Assembly: GCA_964504255.1 (NCBI GenBank)
Contig: CAZDDU010000001.1
Coordinates: 99,512-163,511 of the forward strand
From: an uncultured Candidatus Saccharibacteria bacterium
Lineage (GTDB): Bacteria; Patescibacteriota; Minisyncoccia; Phycocordibacterales; Zambryskibacteraceae
DNA length: 64,000 bases
Direction of reading: 5' to 3'
The translations under genes were made by a program, and so were the position numbers. Shown here piece after piece: positions 7,748 through 31,325 of the stretch. Position 1 is the stretch's first letter. Every line of letters begins with the position of its first letter. Under the pieces are notes generated by a model. It was not told where the DNA came from. It searched no databases and saw only the letters and a list, made by a program, of their open reading frames with translations.

Positions 7748-8254
7748 CTAGGCTTTTTCGATAATAGCTGTCATGCCCTTCGGGCTCTTTTTGGGAGCAT
7801 CAGCGATCTTGTGGGGGACAGTTACCAGCTTGAGTAGGCGCTCTATACGCTCTTTGAGGAACTTCTCATCCAGGTACTTAGCTCTGCCTGGGAGGAAGAG
7901 GTTGATCTGGACTCTGTTGCCCTCAGCAAGCCATTCTGAGGCCTTCTTAGCCTTGAGGCCGAGATCGCTCTCGCCGGTACCTAGCTTCACTTGGACGCTC
8001 TTCACCTCGACTGAGTGGGCCTTCTTCTTTGATTCCTTCTCCTTCTTAGCTTCGGCATACATGTACTTACCTAGGTCGGTAATCTTAGCTACCGGGGGTA
8101 TCGCGTTTGGAGAGATCTCGACTAGGTCAAGGGAGAACTCAGCCGCCTTCTTAAGAGCGTCTTCTAGACTAAGGACACCGAAGTTCTCTCCCTCAGGGCC
8201 TATGACTCGAACTTCTTTAGATCTTATGGCGTGATTCGTTCTCGGGGTGAGCAA
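7748..8254 (-). CDS. infC: translation initiation factor IF-3 (non-ATG start, TTG at 8254)
   Basis: EVRVIGPEGENFGVLSLEDALKKAAEFSLDLVEISPNAIPPVAKITDLGKY... IF3 N- and C-domains. Confidence 0.85.
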   Translation of the reverse strand: MLTPRTNHAIRSKEVRVIGPEGENFGVLSLEDALKKAAEFSLDLVEISPNAIPPVAKITDLGKYMYAEAKKEKESKKKAHSVEVKSVQVKLGTGESDLGLKAKKASEWLAEGNRVQINLFLPGRAKYLDEKFLKERIERLLKLVTVPHKIADAPKKSPKGMTAIIEKA

Positions 8255-8321
8255 TGCCTTTTTATTAGTTGGTGTGAGTATACACTATATTTTCCTTAGT
8301 TTCTACTGGTACTATATAGGT

Positions 8322-8777
8322 ATGGAAATAAAGCACAGTCTCCCAGATCTTGAGCAAATCATCAGATCTCGCCGTCCTTTGAAGAACGCTTTCGTGAAGA
8401 CTCAAGCAACTTTATCTGCCTCAGAGCGATTCGCTGTTTATGTTACTCATCATGTGGGTTCTATCGAGTTTTTCTCCATTCTTATGGTGTGGAGTTTGGG
8501 GTGGCTCATGTGGAACCTCTTTGGTCCATCACACCTACGCTTCGACCCAGCACCCGCTTTCGTTATATGGCTCTTCCTCTCAAATATCATCCAGCTCATT
8601 CTTTTGCCACTCATTCTTATTGGACAGAACTTGGACAACAGACATACCAACATGCAGGCAGAGGAAGATTATCAGATTAACAAGCACTCAGAGGAGGAGA
8701 TTAAGATCATCATTGGCCATCTTGAGAACCAGAACGAGCTTATGTTAGAAATTATGCGCAAACTAGACAGAAATTAA
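8322..8777 (+). CDS. DUF1003-like membrane protein
   Basis: Internal ATG at 8322 avoids overlap with infC; LSASERFAVYVTHHVGSIEFFSILMVWSLGWLMWN, two TM helices. Confidence 0.45.
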   Translation: MEIKHSLPDLEQIIRSRRPLKNAFVKTQATLSASERFAVYVTHHVGSIEFFSILMVWSLGWLMWNLFGPSHLRFDPAPAFVIWLFLSNIIQLILLPLILIGQNLDNRHTNMQAEEDYQINKHSEEEIKIIIGHLENQNELMLEIMRKLDRN

Positions 8778-10810: not shown

Positions 10811-10866
10811 ACTCTCAAAATTAAAAAATGCAAAAGAAAAATCCCCTAAGCCGGGCCTGGGGGATT
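10811..10866 (-). promoter_or_regulatory. terminator hairpin + conserved 31-bp promoter-like element (copy 2)
   Basis: Same 31-mer as 10213-10243; minus-strand TTGCAT-16-TATTCT; hairpin aatcccc..ggggatt. Confidence 0.4.
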
Positions 10867-10903
10867 GAAGGAATGTCCTCGTTGTGAGGATTGGAACAGA
10901 GCT

Positions 10904-11222
10904 TTAGTGGCGTCCGGGCGCGACGACGTTCAGAACAACCTTCTTCCATTCGGGAGAAGTATTGGCCTTGTCGTTGTCCAATGCCGCCTTGTACACTTCG
11001 TAGCTCTGTGCGGCAAGACCGAGCTGACGAGCTTCTCGGACAACATGGCGGCACTGGTTGTTGTGCTGCCGCCACTCTTCGGCCTCGGCCATTCTGCGCC
11101 GGAATGATTCCGCGTCTCCATCGTTTGGGTGATCTTCCTCGGTCAAGATGGAACGGAGCCCAATTCCGAAGAGACGGAGGAAGGCGTTGAGATGAATCTT
11201 CAAACCTATGAACATAACAGTG
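10904..11222 (-). CDS. hypothetical protein (start uncertain)
   Basis: ORF in locally GC-rich stretch with several overlapping antisense ORFs; most protein-like frame kept. Confidence 0.3.
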
Positions 11223-12224: not shown

Positions 12225-12303
12225 TCGTGTTATCTGGGGACTTAGTTAGTGAAAATTGGAATATGCTCCATCTTTGGATTTTTGAAGTCTCTGAGGCGAT
12301 TTT
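12225..12303. repeat. direct repeat R copy B
   Basis: hairpin cccaccatgaaggtggg + tcgtgttatctgggga + cttagttagtgaaaattggaatatgctccatctttggatttttgaagtctctgaggcgattt. Confidence 0.7.
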
Positions 12304-12317
12304 AAACAAAACAAAAG

Positions 12318-12350
12318 GAGAGCTGGTTGGGCTCTCCTAAAATCTTTTTG
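12318..12350 (-). terminator. intrinsic terminator for 12369..12650
   Basis: ggagagc-tggttg-ggctctcc hairpin with T-run on minus strand. Confidence 0.5.
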
Positions 12351-12368
12351 GACCAGAGCACTTTCATG

Positions 12369-12650
12369 CTACTCAGGCTTCGTCTTCTTGAATCGCTCGT
12401 CCTTCTCTGCGAGCCAAGTTTCAAGGGCACCGAAGAGTTCTCCGGATTTCACGCCCAGGAGTGTGTGTGGTGGAACTAAGAGAGCATCTTTAGTTCCGTA
12501 AGTCACGTGCCGCTCCTCGCAGATTGCCCTGCCGACCGCTTCAGCGCGCTCGCGGTATTCGCGGTAGAAGTCGGGGTCACTTCCGAAGAGAGTAGTTACA
12601 ACGCCCACTAGTTGAACAGCTTCTATCACATCACTCACAGTTCTTGTCAT
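12369..12650 (-). CDS. hypothetical protein (93 aa)
   Basis: Strong AAGGAG RBS and TTGACA-17-TTTTAT promoter immediately downstream of the duplicated ssrA 3' end. Confidence 0.45.
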   Translation of the reverse strand: MTRTVSDVIEAVQLVGVVTTLFGSDPDFYREYRERAEAVGRAICEERHVTYGTKDALLVPPHTLLGVKSGELFGALETWLAEKDERFKKTKPE

Positions 12651-12712
12651 GGGGGCTCCTTTGGAGATGGTTCTACCAACATAAAATCACAATCAAAAAA
12701 GTATGTCAATAG

Positions 12713-12729
12713 TGGTGGAGATGGGCGGA
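12713..12729 (-). other. 17-nt duplicate of the ssrA 3' end (att-like core)
   Basis: tggtggagatgggcgga identical to 14317-14333, same orientation as ssrA. Confidence 0.6.
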
Positions 12730-12870
12730 CGCTTAGCTATCTCACTCCTCGGAAACCCACGGTTTTCCGAATCCTTCCTCCACGGGAGACCAGAGTGTTC
12801 TCCCGACCCCTCTCCAAGGTTCGATTCCATCACTACTAGCAGATAACACAAAACTCACCATGAAGGTGGG

Positions 12871-12949
12871 TCGTGTTATCTGGGGACTTAGTTAGTGAAA
12901 ATTGGAATATGCTCCATCTTTGGATTTTTGAAGTCTCTGAGGCGATTAT
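12871..12949. repeat. direct repeat R copy C
   Basis: Identical core to copy B, preceded by the same caccatgaaggtgg hairpin. Confidence 0.7.
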
Positions 12950-12974
12950 AGGCTAACGGTGTTAATATGATTGT

Positions 12975-13235
12975 ATGAATTTTGAAAAACCAATAACACA
13001 GGAATCTAACAAGAGGGAAGTTTTTATTAATAAGCTTCGTGAAGAAGTGGGTAGGCTAGTGGAAGCAGGAAGACTTACTCAAGAGCAAGCAGATGAGAAG
13101 ATTGCTAACGCAGAAAAGATTGAGGAGGGTCTTTCTGAAACTCCTGAAGTAGACGCAGAGATATTCGCAATTGCTGGAATATCTACGGAGGCAGAAATGA
13201 TTCAATTGTTAGGAAAAAGAAAAACTGACATTTAG
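12975..13235 (+). CDS. hypothetical protein (86 aa)
   Basis: Coiled-coil-like acidic protein; immediately downstream of repeat C. Confidence 0.4.
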   Translation: MNFEKPITQESNKREVFINKLREEVGRLVEAGRLTQEQADEKIANAEKIEEGLSETPEVDAEIFAIAGISTEAEMIQLLGKRKTDI

Positions 13236-13243
13236 TCAGTCTT

Positions 13244-13320
13244 CTTATTTTGGTGGACTTAGTTAGCGAAAATTGGAATATGCTCCATCTATGGGTTTTC
13301 GAAGCCTCTGAGGCGATTTT
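13244..13320. repeat. direct repeat R copy D
   Basis: cttattttggtgga + core nearly identical to copy A (single T/C difference). Confidence 0.7.
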
Positions 13321-13377
13321 CAAAAATGGCTCTAAATAGGGGTTTTGAACTACCTTTGTTTCAGTGCAGGGTATCTA

Positions 13378-13406
13378 TTGACAGACAGCTCTTACTATGC
13401 TATACT
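13378..13406 (+). promoter_or_regulatory. sigma70-type promoter candidate
   Basis: TTGACA-17 nt-TATACT upstream of ORF 13546. Confidence 0.45.
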
Positions 13407-13545
13407 TATTAGGTAAAGTAAGTTCTTTGAAAGATGTCATCCTGTTGAGTTTGGAAGAAGGGACGTAATTGACTTGCTGGCGAAACAGCTAAGCCGATTA
13501 TAGATTTTCTTCCAAACTCAACTCAACCCACAGGAGAAGCATACA

Positions 13546-13944
13546 ATGATTAAGTTCGTTACCACCTACCACGGCATGCACCTCAATGTCTTCCTGGTTG
13601 TCGACCAGGACCAAGCCTACCTTTTGTGCTATGAGCACGAGACGGATGAGTTCGGTTACATGTGTCCTTGTTGCATGAACGACAGTCATCGTCGAGCCAT
13701 CATGGACACGGTGAGTGAGGCTATCCGTGATGGTAACGTGAAGGGGACAGTCTTGTGGTGCAGCCACAAGAATGACTCTCCTCACCTCGGCGAAAACTTG
13801 GGCCACTATGCTCCCTTGGAGCAACGCATGTTCAAGGGTGGTTCGGCGAAAGGAATTTCTGCCGAAACTAAGGCCCTCATTCGTGAGGAAGCTTTGCGTC
13901 AGGTGGCTGTGGGAGCCATCAAGGATTTTGCGCCGCGAACGTAA
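13546..13944 (+). CDS. hypothetical Cys-rich protein (132 aa)
   Basis: AGGAGA RBS; CPCC..H motif; chosen over antisense ORF 13498..13959, which is low-complexity. Confidence 0.5.
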   Translation: MIKFVTTYHGMHLNVFLVVDQDQAYLLCYEHETDEFGYMCPCCMNDSHRRAIMDTVSEAIRDGNVKGTVLWCSHKNDSPHLGENLGHYAPLEQRMFKGGSAKGISAETKALIREEALRQVAVGAIKDFAPRT

Positions 13945-14282
13945 TAGCGGTAAACCCACTCGGTGAAGTAACCTACGAGTTCAATCCTCGTAAAACTTTC
14001 AAACAGAACGCACGACCTTAGGGTACGGCGTTCTTTTTCTTTGAATAAAACTATACCTCAAAGAAACAAGAGCTTGAGGGCAGTGGCTTTAATAGCTAAT
14101 AGAAAAGAAATGAACAGTCCACAAAATATCACAAGCTAAACTCGGGAAAGTCTTTCGAGATACTTTCGCGGGCAGATGTGGCTTTAATGAAGCGTCCCGA
14201 TATGCGCAAGCTTATCGAGTATATTGAATCCACCACCTCAGTTGGTGTGGCGTCGCATAGTAATGCGACATCCTACCAAAAT

Positions 14283-14306
14283 ATAGAAAAACCCCGCTCA
14301 TGCGGG
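14283..14306 (-). terminator. intrinsic terminator of ssrA
   Basis: ccccgc-tcat-gcgggg hairpin followed on minus strand by TTTTTCT. Confidence 0.6.
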
Positions 14307-14316
14307 GTTTTCTTAT

Positions 14317-14711
14317 TTTGGTGGAGATGGGCGGAATCGAACCGCCGTGCAAAGATGAATCAGAGTGAGGTCTACATGAGGTAGACTGCTTCATTTGGTT
14401 TCAAACATTAAGATACAAAACAGACGAAAGCTCTTAATGCTCTATCCTCGAGTGTTAGAAGGAGAGTGAGGAGGCTCTACTTCGAGTCCAAAGTATTCCA
14501 CAACTTTCAAGCCCTTGGACAAAGCTTGAGGTCATGCGCACATGCGAGCTTACGCTCTAGCGTATGCGAACTGGAAGTCCTTCATACCGAAGTATGGAGA
14601 AATCCTAGCAAAAGAATCTTTTGCAGTTGAGTTTTGAGAGGGATTTAAGAGTCCTCTCGGCTCTCTCACGCGTCACTCTGATGGTCGTCCTTGTCTAGGC
14701 CGATCATCCCC
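14317..14711 (-). ncRNA. ssrA: transfer-messenger RNA (tmRNA)
   Basis: 5' GGGGAUGAUCGGCCUAGACAAGGACG; 3' GGCGGUUCGAUUCCGCCCAUCUCCACCA; acceptor stem with G3-U70 wobble; sits directly downstream of smpB; ~395 nt. Confidence 0.75.
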
Positions 14712-14726
14712 GTATTTAAATGTAAG

Positions 14727-15164
14727 TTACAAACTTCTCTTTAGGTCTCTCTCGGTGTCGCGCTTCTTGATCGATTCGCGTTTGTCGAATTCCTTCTTAC
14801 CGCGAGCAATAGCGACGCGACACTTGATAAACCTACCTTTATTATACACCGTAATTGGCACAATTGTCAAGCCCTTGGTGGCCTCGGCTGTGGCGAGTTT
14901 CGAGAGCTCGTCTTTGGTCATGAGGAGCTTCCTAACTCTTTTAGGGTCGTAGTCTGTCTTAAGATTTTTGGGCTGGTACGGAGCCACCTCTGCATTGAGG
15001 AGGAAGGCCTCTCCACCTCGGACCGAGACGAAGGAGCCGGCGAGACTCATCTTCCCAGCACGAACACTCTTCACCTCGGGACCATCTAGTTCGAGCCCCG
15101 CCTCGAACTCTTCCATAAGTTCGTAGTCGAAGCGTGCCTTCCTGTTCTCTGCGTAATTACTCAT
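14727..15164 (-). CDS. smpB: SsrA-binding protein SmpB
   Basis: ENRKARFDYEL..AGLEL.G.EVKS.R.G...L..SFV; C-terminal Lys/Arg tail. Confidence 0.9.
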   Translation of the reverse strand: MSNYAENRKARFDYELMEEFEAGLELDGPEVKSVRAGKMSLAGSFVSVRGGEAFLLNAEVAPYQPKNLKTDYDPKRVRKLLMTKDELSKLATAEATKGLTIVPITVYNKGRFIKCRVAIARGKKEFDKRESIKKRDTERDLKRSL

Positions 15165-15209
15165 GGTGTCATCATAGCAAAACCTAGATTTTTCGGTATA
15201 ATTCGGTGA

Positions 15210-17147
15210 ATGTCAGAGAACAAAAACCAGCATAATAAGAAGAAGATCATCATCACTAAGTCAGGTGGTAAGGGCAAGATACCCGAGAGCTTCGCCAGAC
15301 AAGCAATTCTCACGGTCTTCATCTTCTTCGTCATTACCAGTCTCTACTCTTATATCAATGGCAGTGGAGAGAAGCCGGCTGAGATACCGCTATCTGTCCT
15401 TGCTCAGGATGTGGTTGCTGAGTTGGTACAGAAGATCGAGGTGAAGGGTGACGAGCTCATCATCACCTACAAGGATGAGACACAGAAGATCTCTAAGAAG
15501 GAGGAGGGAGCACCACTCACCACCACTCTCGCTAACTATGATGTCACCAAGGAGGCACTTGCTGGTGTAGAGGTCTCTATAATCTCAGACCGTGGAGCCG
15601 GCTTCTGGATCCTCTCACTCACACCCATCATCCTCCCAATTATTTTTGTTATCTTCTTTGTTTGGTTCCTTTCGAGACAAGTTAAGGGTGCGGGGATGCA
15701 AGCCTTCACCTTCGGACAGTCGAAGGCGAGGATGATCCATCCAGACGACAAGGTGAGTCGCATTACATTTAAGGATGTAGCGGGTGCCAAGGAAGCTAAG
15801 GAAGAACTAAGTGAGATAGTCGACTTCTTGAAGAATCCAAAAAAGTTTTTAGAAATTGGCGCGAGGATTCCTAAAGGTATTCTTCTCATGGGTGCACCAG
15901 GTACAGGCAAGACCTTGCTTGCACGAGCGGTGGCGGGGGAGGCTGGAGTGGCCTTCTTCTCCATTTCGGGTTCTGAGTTTGTCGAGATGTTTGTCGGAGT
16001 GGGAGCGTCACGAGTACGCGATCTTTTCGACATGGCGAAGAAGTCAGCACCAGCAATTATTTTCGTCGATGAGATTGATGCAGTAGGCCGAGTGCGTGGT
16101 GGTGGTATGGGCGGAGGGAACGACGAGAGGGAGCAGACTCTAAACCAAATCCTAGTCGAGATGGATGGCTTCGAACCGAACGAGAAGGTAATAGTCATGG
16201 CCGCGACGAATAGACCCGATGTCCTTGACCCCGCGTTACTTCGACCTGGTCGCTTTGATCGTCGTGTTACTCTCGACCTACCAGACCGATCTGATCGCGA
16301 GGAGATTTTGAAAATACATGCGAGGAAGAAGCCTCTGGCTGAGGATGTGAACTTGATCCTCATTGCCGAGCGAACACCAGGCTTCTCTGGTGCCGACCTC
16401 TACTCGCTGATGAACGAAGCGGCGATACTCGCCGCTAGGGAGAATAGGACTAAGGTGTCTCAGTTTGATTTGATCCGCTCGATAGAGAAGGTGATGCTTG
16501 GTCCAGAGAGGAAGAGCCATATTCTGAGCAAGAAGGAGAAGGAGTTGACCGCCTACCACGAAGCAGGGCACGCCATCGTTGCATCTGTCCTTCCATACGC
16601 GGACCCAGTGCACAAAATTTCTATCATTAGTCGAGGTCGCGCAGCGGGTTATGTTCTTAAGCTACCAATTGAGGACAGAAAGCTCCAGAGTAAGAAGGAG
16701 TTCTTAGATGACATTGCAGTAGCGCTCGGTGGTTATGTAGTGGAGAAGACGATCTTCGGTGACCTTACTACTGGTCCATCTAACGACCTGCAAGTTGCCT
16801 CAGCTCTAGCTCGGGATATGGTGGCGAAGTATGGCATGAGCGAGAAGTTGGGTGCCGTAGCGTTCGAGAGTCAGCCTGGTAGACCAATGTTTGGTCAACG
16901 CCTAGAGGAGAAGGGTTATTCGGAAGAGGTGGGGGCGAAGATAGATGCAGAAGTTTCTAAAATAATTGATGACTCAATGAAGAGGGCACACGAGATCATT
17001 ACTACTCATCGTGAGGCATTGAATGATATTGCGAAGACTCTGATAGAAGTCGAGACAATAGAGCAGAAGCAGTTTGAAGAGATCTTAGTGAGGAACAAGA
17101 TCAAGCCTAAGAAGAAGCTCGATATAGAGCATCAGCCTCTAGTGTAG
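15210..17147 (+). CDS. ftsH: ATP-dependent zinc metalloprotease FtsH
   Basis: Two N-terminal TM helices; AAA Walker [19 protein letters not shown]; SRH; HEAGHAIV zinc motif. Confidence 0.9.
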
Positions 17148-17525: not shown

Positions 17526-17599
17526 CCGCCCGTAGCTCAGTTGGTTAGAGCACAGAGCTTATACCTCTGGGGTCCTTGGTTCGAATCCAAGCGGGCGGA
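17526..17599 (+). tRNA. tRNA with anticodon UAU (Ile-AUA by standard code); C1-G72; no encoded CCA
   Basis: Cloverleaf: CCGCCCG/CGGGCGG acceptor, TAGCTCAGTTGGTTAGAGC D-arm, CAGAG-CTTATAC-CTCTG anticodon arm, TTCGAAT T-loop. Confidence 0.6.
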
Positions 17600-17638
17600 C
17601 AAGAAAAATCCCCAAACAAAAGTTCGGGGACATGTAAA

Positions 17639-18445
17639 TTACTGATCCTTCATAAGCACGAGGAGTGCGGCTCTTGCTTCCTCGGCACTCTTGTACACCC
17701 TGGTCTTCACAGTGATGTTCGGTACCTTCACTGGATTCGAGAGGACACCCAAGGGTTCTTGTGAGTCTGTGCGTCGAAACATTACTCCAGCAGATGATGT
17801 GATCTTAGTCACTCCATCACGAACGCACATAAGGGACTTAACCTCGTACGAGCTCTCAAGGAAGTACACAGCCTTCTGCTGGCTGAAGTAGTTCACATTC
17901 GCCAGCCCATTCTTCACATCTTTGATCCGCCAGATGTGGTCGTTGCCATACTCCTTCCAGAGTGGTCTGCCAAAGGCATCGAACTCAGTAACTCTCCAGA
18001 AGCCCGAGTAGAAGCGAGTCTTACTCGCAACCTCTAGACCATTCGTTGTGTCACTTGGGTTCTGTACATTCCAGTCGGAGTTTTGAAGCAGGTTTGCCCC
18101 AGTACTACCGTATGGGTAGATGTTGTAACCGTAGTAGTTCCTCGCCGCGATGAAGAAAGTCTTACCCTCTTCGATCATGAAGCTTGTTCTATACTCGTCG
18201 GGCAGACGCCGTATCCACCAAGGTAGACCCAGGTAGTATGCACCTGTGTCTGGTGGGGTAGGACTTACATAGATGTCACTCATCTCGATCCAATAGGGTG
18301 GATTCGAGTCGATCATGATGATGTCGACGACGCACATTTGTTTGGGCTCTTCGGGCTCAATGATCGTCGGCCTCTCCTCAGAAGTGCAGTTGAGCACAAT
18401 GCTGAACAAGAGGAAGAGCAAGATAACTCTGATAACTCGGCGCAT
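17639..18445 (-). CDS. hypothetical lipoprotein / secreted protein
   Basis: Signal peptide MRRVIRVILLFLLFSIVLNCTSE; no known domain. Confidence 0.5.
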   Translation of the reverse strand: MRRVIRVILLFLLFSIVLNCTSEERPTIIEPEEPKQMCVVDIIMIDSNPPYWIEMSDIYVSPTPPDTGAYYLGLPWWIRRLPDEYRTSFMIEEGKTFFIAARNYYGYNIYPYGSTGANLLQNSDWNVQNPSDTTNGLEVASKTRFYSGFWRVTEFDAFGRPLWKEYGNDHIWRIKDVKNGLANVNYFSQQKAVYFLESSYEVKSLMCVRDGVTKITSSAGVMFRRTDSQEPLGVLSNPVKVPNITVKTRVYKSAEEARAALLVLMKDQ

Positions 18446-18592
18446 GCTACATCTCCAAGTCGGGGGAGTGTATGAGAAGAACTTCTAGTCGCATATTGCT
18501 CTTCGGTTAGAGCCTTGTCAAACAATTTTTATAAAAAAGCACCCCCGCGACATCTCTGTCGTCAGGGGTTTTCTCTCGGCCGAGCTCTAGGC

Positions 18593-19024
18593 TCAGCCCT
18601 TGCCGAGGGCGGGTACAGCGGTGACGCTGAAGGTGGAGGTCCGCGACGGATTCGATTGATCGTAAACCGAAATCAATGCTTCGCCGGGATTCTTGGCGGC
18701 GAAATCGACGTAGAGTCTCCACGTCACCCGCTCGCAGTTAGGGGAGCACGGCTCGTCCATGGCGGGATACGCATACAAGCGGATCGTCATGTCCGGGTTG
18801 CCCGAGACCTCCTTCACCTTGTAGTCGAGCTGGGGTGCGCGACCGGCTGGGGCGTAGAAGTTCATCGACTGGGAGTGGAAGTTCCCAACCTGGATCTCGA
18901 AGGAGAGCCATTCGAACGGCGGGAGCTCGATCTTCTCCTCGACGACGGGCGCGAGGATCTCCTTGGTGCAGCCGGTGAGCGTGAGCGACATGAAGATCAT
19001 GACGAGCGAGAGCAGACGACGCAT
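18593..19024 (-). CDS. hypothetical lipoprotein
   Basis: Signal peptide + lipobox LTGC; GC-rich; preferred over antisense ORF 18515..19171. Confidence 0.5.
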   Translation of the reverse strand: MRRLLSLVMIFMSLTLTGCTKEILAPVVEEKIELPPFEWLSFEIQVGNFHSQSMNFYAPAGRAPQLDYKVKEVSGNPDMTIRLYAYPAMDEPCSPNCERVTWRLYVDFAAKNPGEALISVYDQSNPSRTSTFSVTAVPALGKG

Positions 19025-19098
19025 GGACTACCTCCGAACGGGGTGGATTTGTTGCGGGGAACTTCTGCCTATATTATATTACACAAATGCCCATTTTG

Positions 19099-19533
19099 TC
19101 AAGCCCTGGCTAAACGCTTCTTCTTGAACACTTTTTTCAAAAACTTTCTTAATTTAAATATTTCCATATGAAAGAATGGGGTGAACCAGTCGATAGAAGC
19201 AGTGAAGAGGATTCCACCAGTAAAGAAGGTTGAGTGCTGCACAGTTTTAGATGCGAGAGAGACATCAAAAAGTTTATGCATATAGTAGGGGAGGAAGCCG
19301 ACTGAGGTGAGGTTCACCCCAGTTTGTCCCGCAAGATCGCGGAAGCGTTGCTCGACAATGGTCAACGGACAGTTGCCGTAGTATGACCAGAGTATGACGA
19401 TGAGCACCAAGGCTCCCGCCTCCCAAGGACGAAATCTCTTATATCTAAATGAGAGCAAAAGTCCAAGTACTACAGCAATAAGGGTGGCGACGTGTGCGAG
19501 GGCGGTTAGGTTCGCGAGTAGTGCATAATTCAT
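19099..19533 (-). CDS. hypothetical integral membrane protein
   Basis: 3-4 TM helices, Lys-rich C-terminus. Confidence 0.45.
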   Translation of the reverse strand: MNYALLANLTALAHVATLIAVVLGLLLSFRYKRFRPWEAGALVLIVILWSYYGNCPLTIVEQRFRDLAGQTGVNLTSVGFLPYYMHKLFDVSLASKTVQHSTFFTGGILFTASIDWFTPFFHMEIFKLRKFLKKVFKKKRLARA

Positions 19534-19600
19534 TCCGATAATTTTAGCACAAAGAAAAACACCATTCGGATTCTTTCGAATTCAAATGGTGTTGTTGTGC

Positions 19601-20173
19601 CTACGGGCAAGTAGTTTTGACAGTGAGGACGATGTCGCTTACTCCCATAGTGGCGGTGACATTGTCACCAGAAACGGTTTTCACCCTGATCGAGTCACTC
19701 ATGATCGAGAAGGTGTACGAACCAGCAGTCGGAGGGTTGGGGACACTGCCCTTGAGGGTTGTTCGCCACTTGCCTCCTGGCAGGATCGCAGACAATGTAC
19801 CGAACTGGATGTACGAAGCGATTGAGTCCGTCTGCGCATCGATGTTTGGGGTGATACTGTTGTCGCTGTTCCGCCATGAAGGGCTGAACTGCCACACCTT
19901 TATGCCAACAACAGTGCGCGCGGTCATTCTGACCGTGAGTTGCTTTGGTACGATTGAAGCTGTGCTCGAAGTGTTCTCGAACTCGACAGTGCCCATGTTG
20001 AGCGAGTCACTTGGTGTGTCGAGTCTCGCACACACACCCGGAGCGAGGAAGCGCACAGTCGCGCCGACAGTCTCGGGTCCGGGCTCGGTCGTACCTCCCT
20101 CGCCACAAGCAGTGATGAGGGAGATGAGGCCGATCAGGCTGAGGATCACGAACCTGCGGATGCTAGCAGTCAT
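19601..20173 (-). CDS. hypothetical lipoprotein
   Basis: Signal peptide + lipobox LITAC; preferred over antisense ORF 19617..20216. Confidence 0.5.
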   Translation of the reverse strand: MTASIRRFVILSLIGLISLITACGEGGTTEPGPETVGATVRFLAPGVCARLDTPSDSLNMGTVEFENTSSTASIVPKQLTVRMTARTVVGIKVWQFSPSWRNSDNSITPNIDAQTDSIASYIQFGTLSAILPGGKWRTTLKGSVPNPPTAGSYTFSIMSDSIRVKTVSGDNVTATMGVSDIVLTVKTTCP

Positions 20174-20251
20174 TGGCCCCTCCGGGTCAATAGGGTTTGG
20201 AGAACTACATATCTGAAAGCCATTAGACTCCTATCATGTGTTCTTGTCAAC

Positions 20252-20270
20252 TTTATTCAAAATGGATTTT
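20252..20270. repeat. 19-bp direct repeat, left copy
   Basis: tttattcaaaatggatttt identical to 21101-21119; the copy equals the last 6 codons + stop of recG read on minus strand. Confidence 0.8.
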
Positions 20271-20371
20271 GTAGGTGGAGCAGGAGAGACGGTTTTTTGA
20301 CATCCGTATTTTAAGGAGTACCTTGGTATTTGAGAGGTACGCCTCTCATAACCTTCACTGGAGGATCGGGT

Positions 20372-21082
20372 ATGCCCGAGACCACAGGAAACAAAGTTCT
20401 TTCCACGGGTGTTCTGACTCGTACGACTCCGCTTAGTCTGTCGGACTGGGAGGTTCTCATCGAGGATCGGGTGGCCATGCTCAGGCCTCATTGGGATGAG
20501 TTGGCGACGAGAGAACTCGCCACCGCCTTCCACTTGAGGAGTTGCAGTACTCGCAGGCATTTGATCAGGGAGGATGACCCTAAGTTCGAGAGGATTTTTC
20601 CCGATGGATCAAGGGATAAGAACTTCGAATTGGAGAGAGCTCTCTACGGGGATGAATTCAAGGCTCGGCGAGTGACGATTCCCAATTCTGGCTACGTGCC
20701 GGATGGTTTGCTGGGGGATTACGGAGCTCGTGATGGGGTGCTACTTAGTTGGCGGATCATGGAGAGCCGGACTTGGTCGATCGTGAGGGTTCACTTTATT
20801 GGTATTCGTGACCCAGAAGTCGACAAGCTGGATGACAGTCATGCGATGAACATCGCTGGCTGGTTCAGTGGGTATGAGAAGGCGACTCTAGTAGAGGTGC
20901 AGCCAATGGAGCTTGGCGAGCTCATCCAGACTCTTGCCATCAACCCTCTTGAGATCTGGCTCCGATTGGGTGAGGCGCTAATCCAACTCACCAGTCATCG
21001 CCGCCGTCTCTACGAGTCACTCCAAGCGCTCGAACGTAGGGTTCAGCGCGAGGAAGAGATGTTCCGTCATGTTCCCAACTGA
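20372..21082 (+). CDS. hypothetical protein (236 aa), GC-rich cargo gene of a DR-flanked insertion
   Basis: GGAGGA RBS before ATG at 20372; no recognisable domain; terminated by hairpin shared with recG. Confidence 0.45.
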   Translation: MPETTGNKVLSTGVLTRTTPLSLSDWEVLIEDRVAMLRPHWDELATRELATAFHLRSCSTRRHLIREDDPKFERIFPDGSRDKNFELERALYGDEFKARRVTIPNSGYVPDGLLGDYGARDGVLLSWRIMESRTWSIVRVHFIGIRDPEVDKLDDSHAMNIAGWFSGYEKATLVEVQPMELGELIQTLAINPLEIWLRLGEALIQLTSHRRRLYESLQALERRVQREEEMFRHVPN

Positions 21083-21104
21083 GAGCCTTGCTCTCAGTTT
21101 TTTA
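21080..21104. terminator. bidirectional intrinsic terminator
   Basis: tgagagc-cttg-ctctca + TTTTTT. Confidence 0.5.
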
Positions 21105-21119
21105 TTCAAAATGGATTTT
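21101..21119. repeat. 19-bp direct repeat, right copy (recG 3' end)
   Basis: tttattcaaaatggatttt. Confidence 0.8.
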
Positions 21120-23258
21120 TTGTTCTGAGGATCCCAATCTCTTGCTTAGTTTTGGATACTTTTTTAATTCGGGATCCGTTTCAATAATCTTTACTGCCTC
21201 AGTGCGAGCCGCTTCGACCATCTTGAGGTTCTTAATAGCTTCCATTCCAATGTCCGAGATGCCCCATTGTTTTAGACCACCAAGTTCGCCGGCACCACGC
21301 TGACGAAGATCGTGCTCTGCAAGTTCGAACCCATTCTTTGCTGTTTTGAGCGCCCTCAATCTCTCAATAGAAGTTTGAGAAGTCGAGTCAGTGAAGACAT
21401 AGGCGTACGGCTGGTGAGTACCACGAAGCACTCGTCCACGAAGTTGATGAAGTTGTGAGAGACCAAAGCGCTCTGCACCTTCGATAACTATCACACTAGC
21501 ATTCTCCACGTTCACTCCCACTTCGACTACCGATGTAGAGACGAGTATATCCAATCTTCCTTCCTTAAACTCATTCATCACTCTCTCCTTTTCATCTGTG
21601 CTCATCTTCGAATGCATGATACCTATCTCGTATTCGGGGAAGATGCTTTTCTTCAACCTTTTTGCTTCTTCTTTAACCGACTTCGCTTGCACGGCAAATT
21701 CTTTGTCTGGGTCTGGTTCGTCTATGCGTGGACAGATAATGTATGCTTGGCGACCCTTCACGAGTTCCTCGCGTATCTTTTCGTAAGTTTCTTTACGCTT
21801 GCTTGGGAGGACTATCTCAGTAATTATTTTTTTCCTTCCTTCTGGCATCTCGTCTAGTAGAGTGAGATCAAGGTCGCCGTAGAGTGTAAGTGCGAGAGTG
21901 CGAGGTATGGGAGTAGCCGTCATTGAGAGTAGGTGGGGTGCGACCTTGTCTTTATTTACCAGAGCTTGTCTTTGCTTCGTGCCGAAGCGATGTTGCTCGT
22001 CAATTACAGCTAACGCCAGGTGTTTGAAGGAGACTGACTTCTGTATCAGAGCATGAGTGCCTATGACTATAGCAATTTCACCATTAGCCACCCACTTCTT
22101 GAGCTGGGGTCGAGAGATGTCAGTTGGGTTTTCTGGATTCACCTTGCTTGGGAATTTCTTGCAACCTGCTCCTGTGATGAGAGCGATGTTTATCGGCATG
22201 TGTCTAAAGAGCTTGATAAACGAGTCGAAGTGTTGCTTGGCCAGTATCTCAGTTGGTGCCATGATCGCCGTTTGCAACGTACCGAAGCTCTGGCCCTTGG
22301 GTTTCGAGGTTGTAATAGCGTATGCGAGCGTGGCTGCGACAGCAGTCTTGCCACTGCCCACATCTCCTTCTAGAAGCCTAGACATTGGGTACCCACGACG
22401 GAAGTCATCAAGCGCAGCTTCGACCGCTCTCCTCTGAGCTTTCGTTGCCTCGAAGGGGAATCTAGATATAAACTTTTCTACGTCATCCACACCCTTCTCA
22501 ATCTTGAAGGCATTCTGTATTTGGAATAAATGCTTGGACCTCTGCTTCTCTAATTGGATAAAAAATATTTCCTCGAAGGCAAATCTTTTCCTTGCTACTT
22601 CAGCGTCACTAAGTTTTTTGGGTGTATGGATATAGAGGAGTGCGGTGCGGAGAGAGGGGAGAGAATACTTTTTCAAACTATTTTCTGGTATTGGATCTTC
22701 TAGTTTGTCGAGGACACCACTAAGGAAGATGTTTTGAATCTTATGCATGATCCAGTTACTCGTTAGCCCCTTCGTCTCTCTGTATACTGGGTAGAGAGCA
22801 TGGACACCACTCTCTTCACCAAAGAGTGATACTCCGATAGTCTCTGGGAGTTTATCTACCTGCTCGACCTTGGGGTTTGAGAAGTAGAGTTCATTTCTTC
22901 TTTCACTTACTTTGCCCTCAATACGTACGAAGCCTCCTTCATGGAGCATCTTCGCAAGGTACGCTTGGTGGAACCAAACTATTTTTATCTTCTCTGACCC
23001 GTCTGTTACCCAAGCCTCTGACATTGGGATCTTCTTAGTCCAAGCTTTTTTGGTTTCTAGTCCTGTGATCTTGCCGAAGATGGTGGCTGTCTCTCCTTTC
23101 TTAAGTGAGGCAATGTTACTCACTTCTGCTGTGTCGGTATAGCGAGTGGGGAAGTGATAAAGTATGTCCTCGATAGTGAGTAGTCCGAGTCTCTTCAGAG
23201 CCTTCTCTTGTGCAGGAAGTATCCGGAAGTGTGTCTTGAGGTTATCCCTTAAATTCAT
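21102..23258 (-). CDS. recG: ATP-dependent DNA helicase RecG
   Basis: Wedge domain; helicase motif I GDVGSGKTAVAA; DEQHRFG; motif VI QLRGRVGR-like. Confidence 0.85.
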   Translation of the reverse strand: MNLRDNLKTHFRILPAQEKALKRLGLLTIEDILYHFPTRYTDTAEVSNIASLKKGETATIFGKITGLETKKAWTKKIPMSEAWVTDGSEKIKIVWFHQAYLAKMLHEGGFVRIEGKVSERRNELYFSNPKVEQVDKLPETIGVSLFGEESGVHALYPVYRETKGLTSNWIMHKIQNIFLSGVLDKLEDPIPENSLKKYSLPSLRTALLYIHTPKKLSDAEVARKRFAFEEIFFIQLEKQRSKHLFQIQNAFKIEKGVDDVEKFISRFPFEATKAQRRAVEAALDDFRRGYPMSRLLEGDVGSGKTAVAATLAYAITTSKPKGQSFGTLQTAIMAPTEILAKQHFDSFIKLFRHMPINIALITGAGCKKFPSKVNPENPTDISRPQLKKWVANGEIAIVIGTHALIQKSVSFKHLALAVIDEQHRFGTKQRQALVNKDKVAPHLLSMTATPIPRTLALTLYGDLDLTLLDEMPEGRKKIITEIVLPSKRKETYEKIREELVKGRQAYIICPRIDEPDPDKEFAVQAKSVKEEAKRLKKSIFPEYEIGIMHSKMSTDEKERVMNEFKEGRLDILVSTSVVEVGVNVENASVIVIEGAERFGLSQLHQLRGRVLRGTHQPYAYVFTDSTSQTSIERLRALKTAKNGFELAEHDLRQRGAGELGGLKQWGISDIGMEAIKNLKMVEAARTEAVKIIETDPELKKYPKLSKRLGSSEQKIHFE

Positions 23259-31214: not shown

Positions 31215-31301
31215 GGAGAGATGGATGAGTGGTTTAAATCAACAGTTTACTAAACTGTCGTTCCTTAATTGGAACCGCGAGTTCGAATCTCGCTCTCTCC
31301 G
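31215..31301 (+). tRNA. type II tRNA, Ser-like (G73), anticodon reads ACU by my fold
   Basis: GGAGAGA/TCTCTCC acceptor, 3-bp D-stem, ACAGT-TTACTAA-ACTGT anticodon arm, 18-nt variable arm, GCGAG-TTCGAAT-CTCGC T-arm. Confidence 0.55.
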
Positions 31302-31325
31302 CATGTGTGCCTCTATAATAGAGAG

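Follow-up and report, generated by a model that had tools for sequence, protein, structure and literature searches.

Phage 21 and e14 at icd, and islands at tRNA genes, bring with them a replacement 3' end for the gene into which they insert, and the displaced 3' fragment of that gene is found at the far junction. In staphylococci, the staphylococcal cassette chromosome (SCC) and pseudo-SCC elements are located at the 3' end of orfX (rlmH) and are bounded by direct repeats. The recombinase Ccr recognizes at least 14 bp of the gene terminus, and elements without ccr are found at the orfX site either alone or in tandem with others (PMC6243372). In streptococci, cis-mobilizable elements (CIMEs) have been defined, together with a model of accretion by site-specific recombination at gene 3' ends (PMC5704250). 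In Neisseria, the concept of the minimal mobile element has been put forward (PMC3787668). Here, we describe a cassette at the 3' end of recG in a 64-kb stretch of DNA (64,000 nucleotides, referred to as the window) from contig CAZDDU010000001.1 of an uncultured Candidatus Saccharibacteria bacterium. The cassette has a single gene, is flanked by copies of the recG terminus, and belongs to a group of cassettes found behind recG in Paceibacteria.

We found that the cassette is bounded by two exact copies of the 19-bp sequence TTTATTCAAAATGGATTTT, one at 20252..20270 and the other at 21101..21119, both on the minus strand. An earlier note on this DNA had claimed a perfect direct repeat at these positions, and the repeat is both exact and non-random: none of 100 dinucleotide-preserving shuffles had two or more matches to the 19-mer. 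There was no third copy elsewhere in the window when up to three mismatches were allowed, and the 19-mer is thus not a generic motif. The right (recG-proximal) copy is the functional end of recG (21102..23258, minus strand). This gene is intact and encodes a product of 718 amino acids, and the Pfam domains RecG_wedge, DEAD and Helicase_C were found on an identical product. The right copy consists of codons K714-E718, the stop codon (21102-21104), and one further base. It had been described as the last six codons plus the stop; there are five (KIHFE), and the Q codon lies outside the repeat. The left (distal) copy duplicates the recG terminus at a displaced position and is non-coding; its 18-bp core (20253-20270) contains KIHFE and the stop on the minus strand. 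We found no residue of recG similarity past the 18-mer on the left side.

The repeat is 18 bp in most strains of the species. It reads AAA ATC CAT TTT GAA TAA; that is, K-I-H-F-E-stop. Comparison of strains indicated that the 19th base in the window is a strain-specific coincidence. In two strains (L081 and L086; L numbers denote the loci that were compared) there is a G>A change in the non-coding left copy, so in these strains the left copy is starting to decay. The cassette body between the two copies is 830 bp, and the whole insertion, from 20271 to 21119, is 849 bp.

We found the corresponding empty site in two sister lineages. In L001, the closest relative available (RecG 92% identical in amino acid sequence), the recG stop codon is followed directly by the TTGACA promoter and the lipoprotein gene, which in the window are found on the far side of the left copy. 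The same arrangement is present in L129, which is more distant (RecG 81% identical). Based on these two empty sites, 20271-21119 was inserted in the lineage of the window. The insertion is at the exact 3' end of recG and the recG terminus was regenerated, as had been proposed. The same junctions were present in at least 10 independent assemblies (L081-L088, L200 and L201) that came from different samples and from ENA, Logan and NCBI. The cassette is therefore fixed in the species, and an assembly artefact is very unlikely. There was no polymorphism for presence or absence within the species: every contig with an identical RecG had the cassette. The earlier note had asked whether all relatives share the identical arrangement; this is true within the species and false in the sister species. 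Between the window and L001, recG had a uniform nucleotide identity of 77-84% up to its 3' end, and sliding identity comparisons detected no foreign 3' tract in recG, either against L001 or between other pairs.

In Paceibacteria, cassettes have docked repeatedly at the recG terminus. We used the last 18-200 nucleotides of recG as a query against the rest of each locus in a set of 80 genome loci and 80 metagenome loci. Every significant match had the strand of recG, was located downstream of it, and extended to the stop codon and no further. About 10 of ~140 Paceibacteria lineages were occupied, each with one or two cassettes of 0.5-4 kb, and each cassette was followed by a displaced 3' fragment of recG of 18-165 bp. 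Giving offsets as the position of the distal copy relative to the recG copy, the fragment was 18-19 bp at +849 in the window and 24 bp at +792 in L003 (the same as L100). L004 (the same as L105) had two fragments, one of 47 bp at 100% identity (+2882) and one of 147 bp at 92% identity (+3689). Two fragments were also found in L104 (90 bp at 100% identity and 68 bp at 88%) and in L162 (about 165 bp and about 75 bp). Single fragments were found in L007 (65 bp), L028 (55 bp), L031 (48 bp) and L152 (31 bp), and the occupied site in L020 was detected at the protein level only.

The cargo of the other loci, named from lists of open reading frames (ORFs) and Pfam matches, was varied. HicA and HicB were encoded in cassettes of L004, L152 and L162, and a PemK/MazF toxin in cassettes of L007 and L104. 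Other cargo included a vault-shoulder/SPFH protein (L004), a secreted peptidoglycan-binding protein (L031), and small proteins of unknown function (L003, L028 and L162). Toxin-antitoxin modules (HicAB or MazF) were present in 5 of the 12 cassettes examined. In L104, the cassette nearest recG (12233-16093) encodes an adenylosuccinate-synthetase-like protein, an unknown protein of 348 amino acids, and a protein with a protein kinase domain. These three genes resemble a defence or stress module more than a metabolic one.

Three loci had arrays of two cassettes. In the arrays of L004 and L104, the recG-proximal fragment was perfect and the distal fragment had diverged, which suggests that new cassettes enter beside recG. 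The RecG proteins of these two loci are 93% identical, yet the loci have no cassette in common. Different cassettes in such close relatives indicate rapid turnover. The hicAB cassettes of L152 and L162 were 83% identical in nucleotide sequence, whereas the recG genes of these loci were only 73.5% identical.

The displaced fragments were of different kinds. In the window (18 bp) and in L003 (24 bp) the repeats were short and sharp, with no residual homology beyond them. The long distal fragments were in-frame, mosaic alleles of recG. All 12 differences in the 147-bp fragment of L004 were within its first 94 bp, and the two fragments of L162 were like each other and unlike the resident recG end. 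A derived patch that seemed to be shared by the fragments of the mazF cassettes in L007 and L104 was, on translation, too weak to use.

The preference for recG is real. We surveyed 1502 ORFs of at least 120 amino acids for terminal repeats, setting aside trivial tandem repeats and tRNA repeats. A repeat that reached the stop codon was found for 9 of 140 recG genes and for 2 of 1351 other ORFs (Fisher odds ratio 46, p = 2e-8). Truly eligible comparison genes are only the conserved genes at the edges of variable regions, and the downstream side of recG qualifies as such an edge: synteny breaks off there, even between genomes with recG genes that are 83% identical in nucleotide sequence. We also searched at the protein level, which is less biased toward conserved termini than the nucleotide search. 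Among 145 loci, C-terminal fragments of RecG were found in 8 distinct lineages (E < 0.002), in addition to two weak matches. In contrast, C-terminal fragments of FtsH were found in none of 89 loci, even though ftsH in the window converges on recG across the same interval. This contrast, together with the survey of ORFs, is the basis for our conclusion about preference.

The two other ORFs were a fatty-acid desaturase gene (L080) and a pyrD-like gene (L130). In L080 (2934-5319), the last 46 bp of the desaturase gene are duplicated 1159 bp downstream, around one convergent ORF that encodes an acidic protein of 305 amino acids. In L130 (8245-10420), the last 21 bp of the pyrD-like gene and its terminator hairpin (36 bp in total) are duplicated around a dihydroorotase-like gene.

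The cassette body in the window (20271..21100, plus strand) appears to be one complete transcription unit and is absent from L001 and L129. Its elements, all on the plus strand, were read from the sequence except where noted. A TTGACA hexamer is present 5' of the cargo gene at 20297..20302. The earlier note had pointed to this hexamer as a TTGACA-like upstream element; a consensus scan found no -10 element 16-18 nucleotides from it, and its status as a promoter is uncertain. The 5' leader of the cargo gene has a hairpin, GAGAGG-TACG-CCTCTC (20332..20347), and there was no Rfam match within 19500-21500. A GGAGGA ribosome-binding site (20360..20365) lies 6 nucleotides 5' of the ATG of the cargo gene (20372..21082), which the ORF list gives as 236 codons long. 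A terminator scan identified an intrinsic-terminator hairpin at 21077..21099, with a T-tract that reaches into the right repeat. Because this T-tract overlaps the right repeat and the recG stop codon, the hairpin can serve the convergent recG as well, as a bidirectional terminator. The gene, its ribosome-binding site, and the terminator hairpin abutting the end of recG are thus as they had been described. Around the single intact gene, the cassette has only short non-coding margins, of 101 bp on the 5' side and 18 bp on the 3' side.

The GC content of the cassette is 53%, compared to 46% (45.8%) for the window. The cargo gene is 54% GC, with 61% GC at third codon positions (GC3), compared to 46% GC for recG. 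A cluster of small lipoprotein-like genes on the other side of the cassette (17639-20173) has a GC3 of 63-84%. This cluster is kept in place in both L001 and L129, so high GC in this region is no sign of recent import. With native neighbours that are equally or more GC-rich, composition alone is no proof that the cassette is foreign.

The member of this cluster that adjoins the left repeat (19601-20173, minus strand) probably has its promoter at 20222..20250 on the minus strand, judging from the sequence and from comparison with L001. The element there has a -35 hexamer, TTGACA (20245-20250), a spacer of 17 nucleotides, and a -10 hexamer, TCTAAT (20222-20227). The displaced recG 18-mer is directly upstream of this -35 hexamer (20222-20270 in all), where an A/T-rich UP element would be. 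In the empty site of L001, the genuine end of recG holds the same position in front of the promoter. The duplication may therefore have preserved both the C-terminus of RecG and the context of the promoter. The lipoprotein-like gene itself is hypervariable, with only 65% nucleotide and 58% amino acid identity between the window and L081, unlike recG, the cassette and the PAP2 gene, which are more than 99% identical between the two. The allele in L081 resembles that of the sister species L001, and the switch in identity is at the left repeat copy.

The 236-amino-acid cargo protein had no match in Pfam, PHROGs, PADLOC, NCBIfam or the sequences in PDB. It had been called an orphan. However, a HMMER search of 1.84 billion representative proteins found 53 remote homologues of about 205 amino acids, and the protein belongs to an uncharacterised family of Patescibacteria. 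Conserved positions in the family include a W, an R, a WGLTR-like motif and a GYERA-like motif, and the copy in the window has an insert of 15 amino acids. All members of the 90% cluster of the cargo protein were located at recG. In contrast, the remote homologues were in variable regions beside core genes of other Patescibacteria and never at recG. Small ORFs recur beside the homologues in L089 and L095. No relatives were found on viral contigs. In one of the variable regions with a homologue (L091), the last 16 nucleotides of an AbiEii-like ORF (8202-8522) recur 4.3 kb downstream, which could be chance or another terminus duplication.

An AlphaFold model built from the family alignment was confident (predicted local distance difference test score, pLDDT, 82; predicted template modelling score, pTM, 0.76) and has N-terminal helices, a central sheet, and a C-terminal helix of 40 residues. 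The central beta-sheet of the model is weakly NTF2-like. We found no recombinase, nuclease or transposase domain or fold in the cargo protein. The protein is thus a passenger and not the enzyme of insertion. Homing leaves its target without a duplication. The suggestion of a homing-type insertion is thus not supported, as the cargo has no nuclease domain or fold and the target is duplicated. The view that no recombinase is present in cis was upheld: domain and fold searches of the cargo and a profile search of the window were negative.

We regard it as a robust inference that the cassette, while mobile or in a precursor state, brought along a single recG terminus, and that the two copies are the product of its recombination with the terminus on the chromosome. 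How the recombination occurred is a matter of weighing, and our preferred reading, held tentatively, is an att-type insertion by a site-specific recombinase supplied in trans. According to this proposal, the 830-bp segment, a small accessory-gene cassette that encodes no recombinase, would have entered the ancestor of the species by one reciprocal crossover. The partners would have been the last 18 bp of the chromosomal recG, AAAATCCATTTTGAATAA (attB), and an identical 18-mer (attP) on the incoming DNA, which was probably circular. The crossover would fall within the 18-mer, restore an intact recG and stop codon beside the cassette, and leave the second copy of the 18-mer at the far end, before the original downstream promoter. 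The predicted junction in the circular (attP) form is ...CTCCACCTAC-AAAATCCATTTTGAATAA-AAAACTGAGAGC..., and the predicted restored empty site is ...GAACAA-AAAATCCATTTTGAATAA-(A/T)(G/A)(-/C)TTGACAAGAAC.... The gene for this recombinase may lie at another place in the genome, or a visiting element may carry it. Pseudo-SCC elements without ccr at the orfX terminus and CIMEs follow the same logic. Repeated events of this kind would let cassettes of one to three genes accumulate behind ...IHFE-stop, with the newest apparently next to recG. A recombinase acting in trans would explain the preference for the site, the sharp repeats of 18 and 24 bp, and the arrays, and lengths of 18 and 24 bp are typical of att cores. 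Large serine recombinases are common in these genomes, which also speaks for it.

Several results weigh against this reading. The search for recombinases around recG covered flanks of 6-10 kb, and the full 64 kb in the case of the window. None of the 12 cassettes examined contained a recombinase. A jackhmmer search of 4062 ORFs (the window and ~180 loci), seeded with Escherichia coli XerD, detected no tyrosine recombinase, and two regular-expression screens for recombinases also came up empty. In a Pfam census of 141 ORF families downstream of recG, Phage_integrase was absent from the 25 families listed, and the only recombinase domains among those listed were of the serine type (Resolvase/Recombinase, 2 members). 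Large serine recombinases were present in 13 loci, where they were beyond ftsH or upstream of recG; none was found at the recG terminus, in an occupied locus, or in the window. The cassette ends had no common motif and no inverted repeats. A search for an attP-like copy on viral contigs, using exact 18-mers and 17-mers, gave only chance matches in unrelated phages. The cassettes are compact units without room for remnants of an integrase, and so were not made by decay of classical islands. The terminal repeats of the desaturase and pyrD-like genes are a further difficulty. In addition, the repeats range from 18 to 165 bp and the longer ones are mosaic in-frame alleles, a pattern that also fits homologous recombination. 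The suggestion of site-specific recombination in the earlier note is plausible but unproven: the searches turned up no recombinase, no attP form on viral contigs and no circular intermediate.

It is also possible, and nearly as likely as a recombinase in trans, that the cassettes arose by natural transformation and host recombination with no dedicated recombinase. In this case, the 3' part of recG and a downstream gene from another Paceibacterium would have been anchored in the recipient by homologous pairing within recG. The other end would have been joined inside the terminus of the recipient, through either homology-facilitated illegitimate recombination or capture at a double-strand break. 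With recG completed by the donor copy, the recipient's own last 18-165 bp would be displaced downstream. Once displaced, the fragment would be a portable right-hand homology arm, and the cassette could spread, as minimal mobile elements do, by double crossover into genomes that have a similar recG end. The lack of recombinases in and around the cassettes, the variable length of the fragments, and the finding that the distal fragments in L004 and L162 are in-frame mosaic alleles and not products of random decay are all as expected from this route. So is the boundary, which always coincides with the stop codon, the point beyond which donor and recipient would no longer be homologous. The same architecture at the desaturase and pyrD-like genes and the synteny breakpoint downstream of recG also fit. 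Saccharibacteria, members of the Patescibacteria, are naturally competent and integrate DNA by homologous recombination (PMC10633639), and the transformation route fits this demonstrated competence. However, an arm of 18 bp (24 bp in L003) is under the usual minimum for RecA, and the first duplication requires an unusual, backward illegitimate join. Experiments on homology-facilitated illegitimate recombination reportedly yielded deletions rather than duplications. Transformation also does not predict the preference for recG over other genes and ftsH, although this point is softened by a detection bias toward conserved termini, and there is no foreign recG 3' tract against L001 or between other pairs.

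The other explanations that we considered are much less probable than either of these. Direct repeats of a gene terminus around foreign DNA are a textbook scar of an integrase, and CIMEs that formed by decay have been documented (PMC5704250), so the cassette might be the stump of a larger, integrase-bearing island or prophage, reduced by deletion to a classical CIME. We consider this improbable: the margins of 101 bp and 18 bp contain no pseudogene remnants, all 12 cassettes in 9 lineages are equally compact, and neither an intact parent element nor a tyrosine integrase is present beside recG in ~140 lineages. The sharp, perfect repeat in the window, with no homology outside it, might instead be a target-site duplication made in situ, by staggered cuts from a transposase-like or other nuclease followed by fill-in. 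Neither a transposase nor terminal inverted repeats are present, the duplication varies from 18 to 165 bp while one boundary is always at the stop codon, and the long fragments are diverged alleles and not self-copies, which makes such an origin quite improbable. For the same reasons of domain content, repeats and length (no transposase domain or fold, no terminal inverted repeats, a duplication of 18-165 bp) we rejected an insertion sequence or transposon. We give equally little weight to the notion that the arrangement is ancestral, with the gene deleted from relatives when the two repeats recombined. In its favour, precise deletions are promoted by direct repeats, and the cassette has reached fixation in the species. 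But with both L001 and L129 empty, two independent precise deletions would be required, and an earlier insertion would still be needed to create the repeats; moreover, this cargo is at recG in no other lineage, and its homologues are located at other sites. These are metagenome assemblies, some with contigs of about 4x coverage. Assembly k-mers are usually longer than a repeat of 18-19 bp, and a chimera or a chance repeat is very unlikely given identical junctions in the independent assemblies, which represent several samples and pipelines, and given the shuffles, none of which produced a second copy.

We also considered a dif site used by an integrative mobile element exploiting Xer (IMEX). 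GC skew is positive across all 64 kb of the window with no switch near recG, so this is not a replication terminus or dif region. The 18-mer and its flanks, as read, do not have the two-arm symmetry of dif. This candidate was rejected.

Recombinase genes and repeats were found elsewhere in and around these loci. The large serine recombinase genes include L146 18281-19846, L114 20776-21729, L110 10796-11830, L129 16959-17564, L063 13565-14164, L164 250-1749, L154 382-1677 and L046 1435-2370. In five lineages, a serine recombinase is just beyond ftsH, on the side where the window has the gene for transfer-messenger RNA (tmRNA). This points to a separate, recombinase-bearing integration hot spot beyond ftsH. 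In L154, a tRNA gene with a long arm is partly duplicated 280 bp away. ARAGORN called a tRNA-Ser with anticodon ACT (31215-31302) and a tRNA-Ile with anticodon TAT (17526-17600) in the window. ACT is an unusual anticodon; the call may be wrong, or the tRNA may be a modified or variant one. A sequence in L001 that adjoins tRNA-Ile (10836-10915) matches 82 bp of the window (12748-12829) at 88% identity; in the window this sequence is ~5 kb away, on the far side of the tmRNA gene. The sequence could be an att-like remnant or else a small mobile repeat.

A large share of bacterial diversity belongs to the Patescibacteria, whose genomes are tiny and have few recognisable mobile elements. Repeated capture of compact cassettes at a conserved gene terminus, with no recombinase in cis, would give this group a concrete route of gene flow, for cargo as varied as toxin-antitoxin modules, a kinase module, a vault-like protein and proteins of the cell surface. 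Inserts flanked by direct repeats are prone to deletion and addiction modules resist loss, so toxin-antitoxin cargo would be sensible under either a trans recombinase or transformation. We found no description of recG-terminus cassettes in the searchable literature on recG as an integration site or on integrative elements of Patescibacteria. It is conceivable, though rather doubtful, that the cassettes reveal an undescribed platform for cassette acquisition, in which the last codons of recG act as a recombination site or as a portable homology arm, and which uses a recombinase of the host or none that is dedicated. Such a platform would be a functional analogue, without an integrase, of a chromosomal integron, in a phylum that has been regarded as poor in mobile elements. 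Should a trans-acting recombinase come to light, the site would be a new example of the logic of SCC and orfX outside the Firmicutes. If none exists, then a carried fragment of a core gene can by itself make a cassette mobile. In either case the recG terminus, if it functions as proposed, could be a natural safe-harbour site for engineering Patescibacteria, which take up DNA by natural competence, with a minimal targeting sequence of 15-18 bp plus a recG arm.

The cassette resembles several known systems and fails at least one defining feature of each. Like pseudo-SCC elements, it is foreign DNA at the end of a conserved housekeeping gene, leaves that gene intact, is bounded by short repeats of the terminus, and has no recombinase genes. 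In contrast, SCC elements are 20-70 kb, compared to 0.5-4 kb for the recG cassettes, and elements that bear ccr are common at the orfX site, whereas no recombinase-bearing element was found at recG in ~140 lineages. The recG cassettes also differ from SCC in having repeats that include up to 165 bp of diverged recG coding sequence and in having no terminal inverted repeats. Phage 21, e14 and islands at tRNA genes encode their own integrase, and the recG cassettes do not.

CIMEs likewise have no genes for integration or transfer and form tandem arrays by repeated integration at an att site with an intact gene end. The window cassette shares with them its flanking direct repeats of the recG terminus and its single ORF, which has no match in Pfam, PHROGs or PADLOC. 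However, CIMEs are decayed integrative and conjugative elements (ICEs) or integrative and mobilizable elements (IMEs) found beside intact relatives, and the recG cassettes have neither remnants of such elements nor intact relatives within the flanks of 6-10 kb. The different whole-gene cassettes without mobility genes at one site in L004 and L104 are similar to minimal mobile elements, which move by transformation and homologous recombination (PMC3787668). Minimal mobile elements lie between two conserved flanking genes and do not have a duplicated terminus, whereas the cassettes here have conserved sequence on the recG side alone, and a recG fragment follows each one. As in a chromosomal integron, there are arrays of small cassettes that are rich in toxin-antitoxin modules, separated by repeats, and apparently extended next to the platform, with any recombinase outside the cassettes. 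Unlike in an integron, there is no intI or attI beside the array, and the repeats are fragments of recG coding sequence and not attC-like imperfect palindromes. In addition, the recG cassettes seem to be complete transcription units: the one in the window has a terminator, and others have promoter-like or hairpin sequences. The best description is that of a recombinase-less cassette at an att-like gene terminus.

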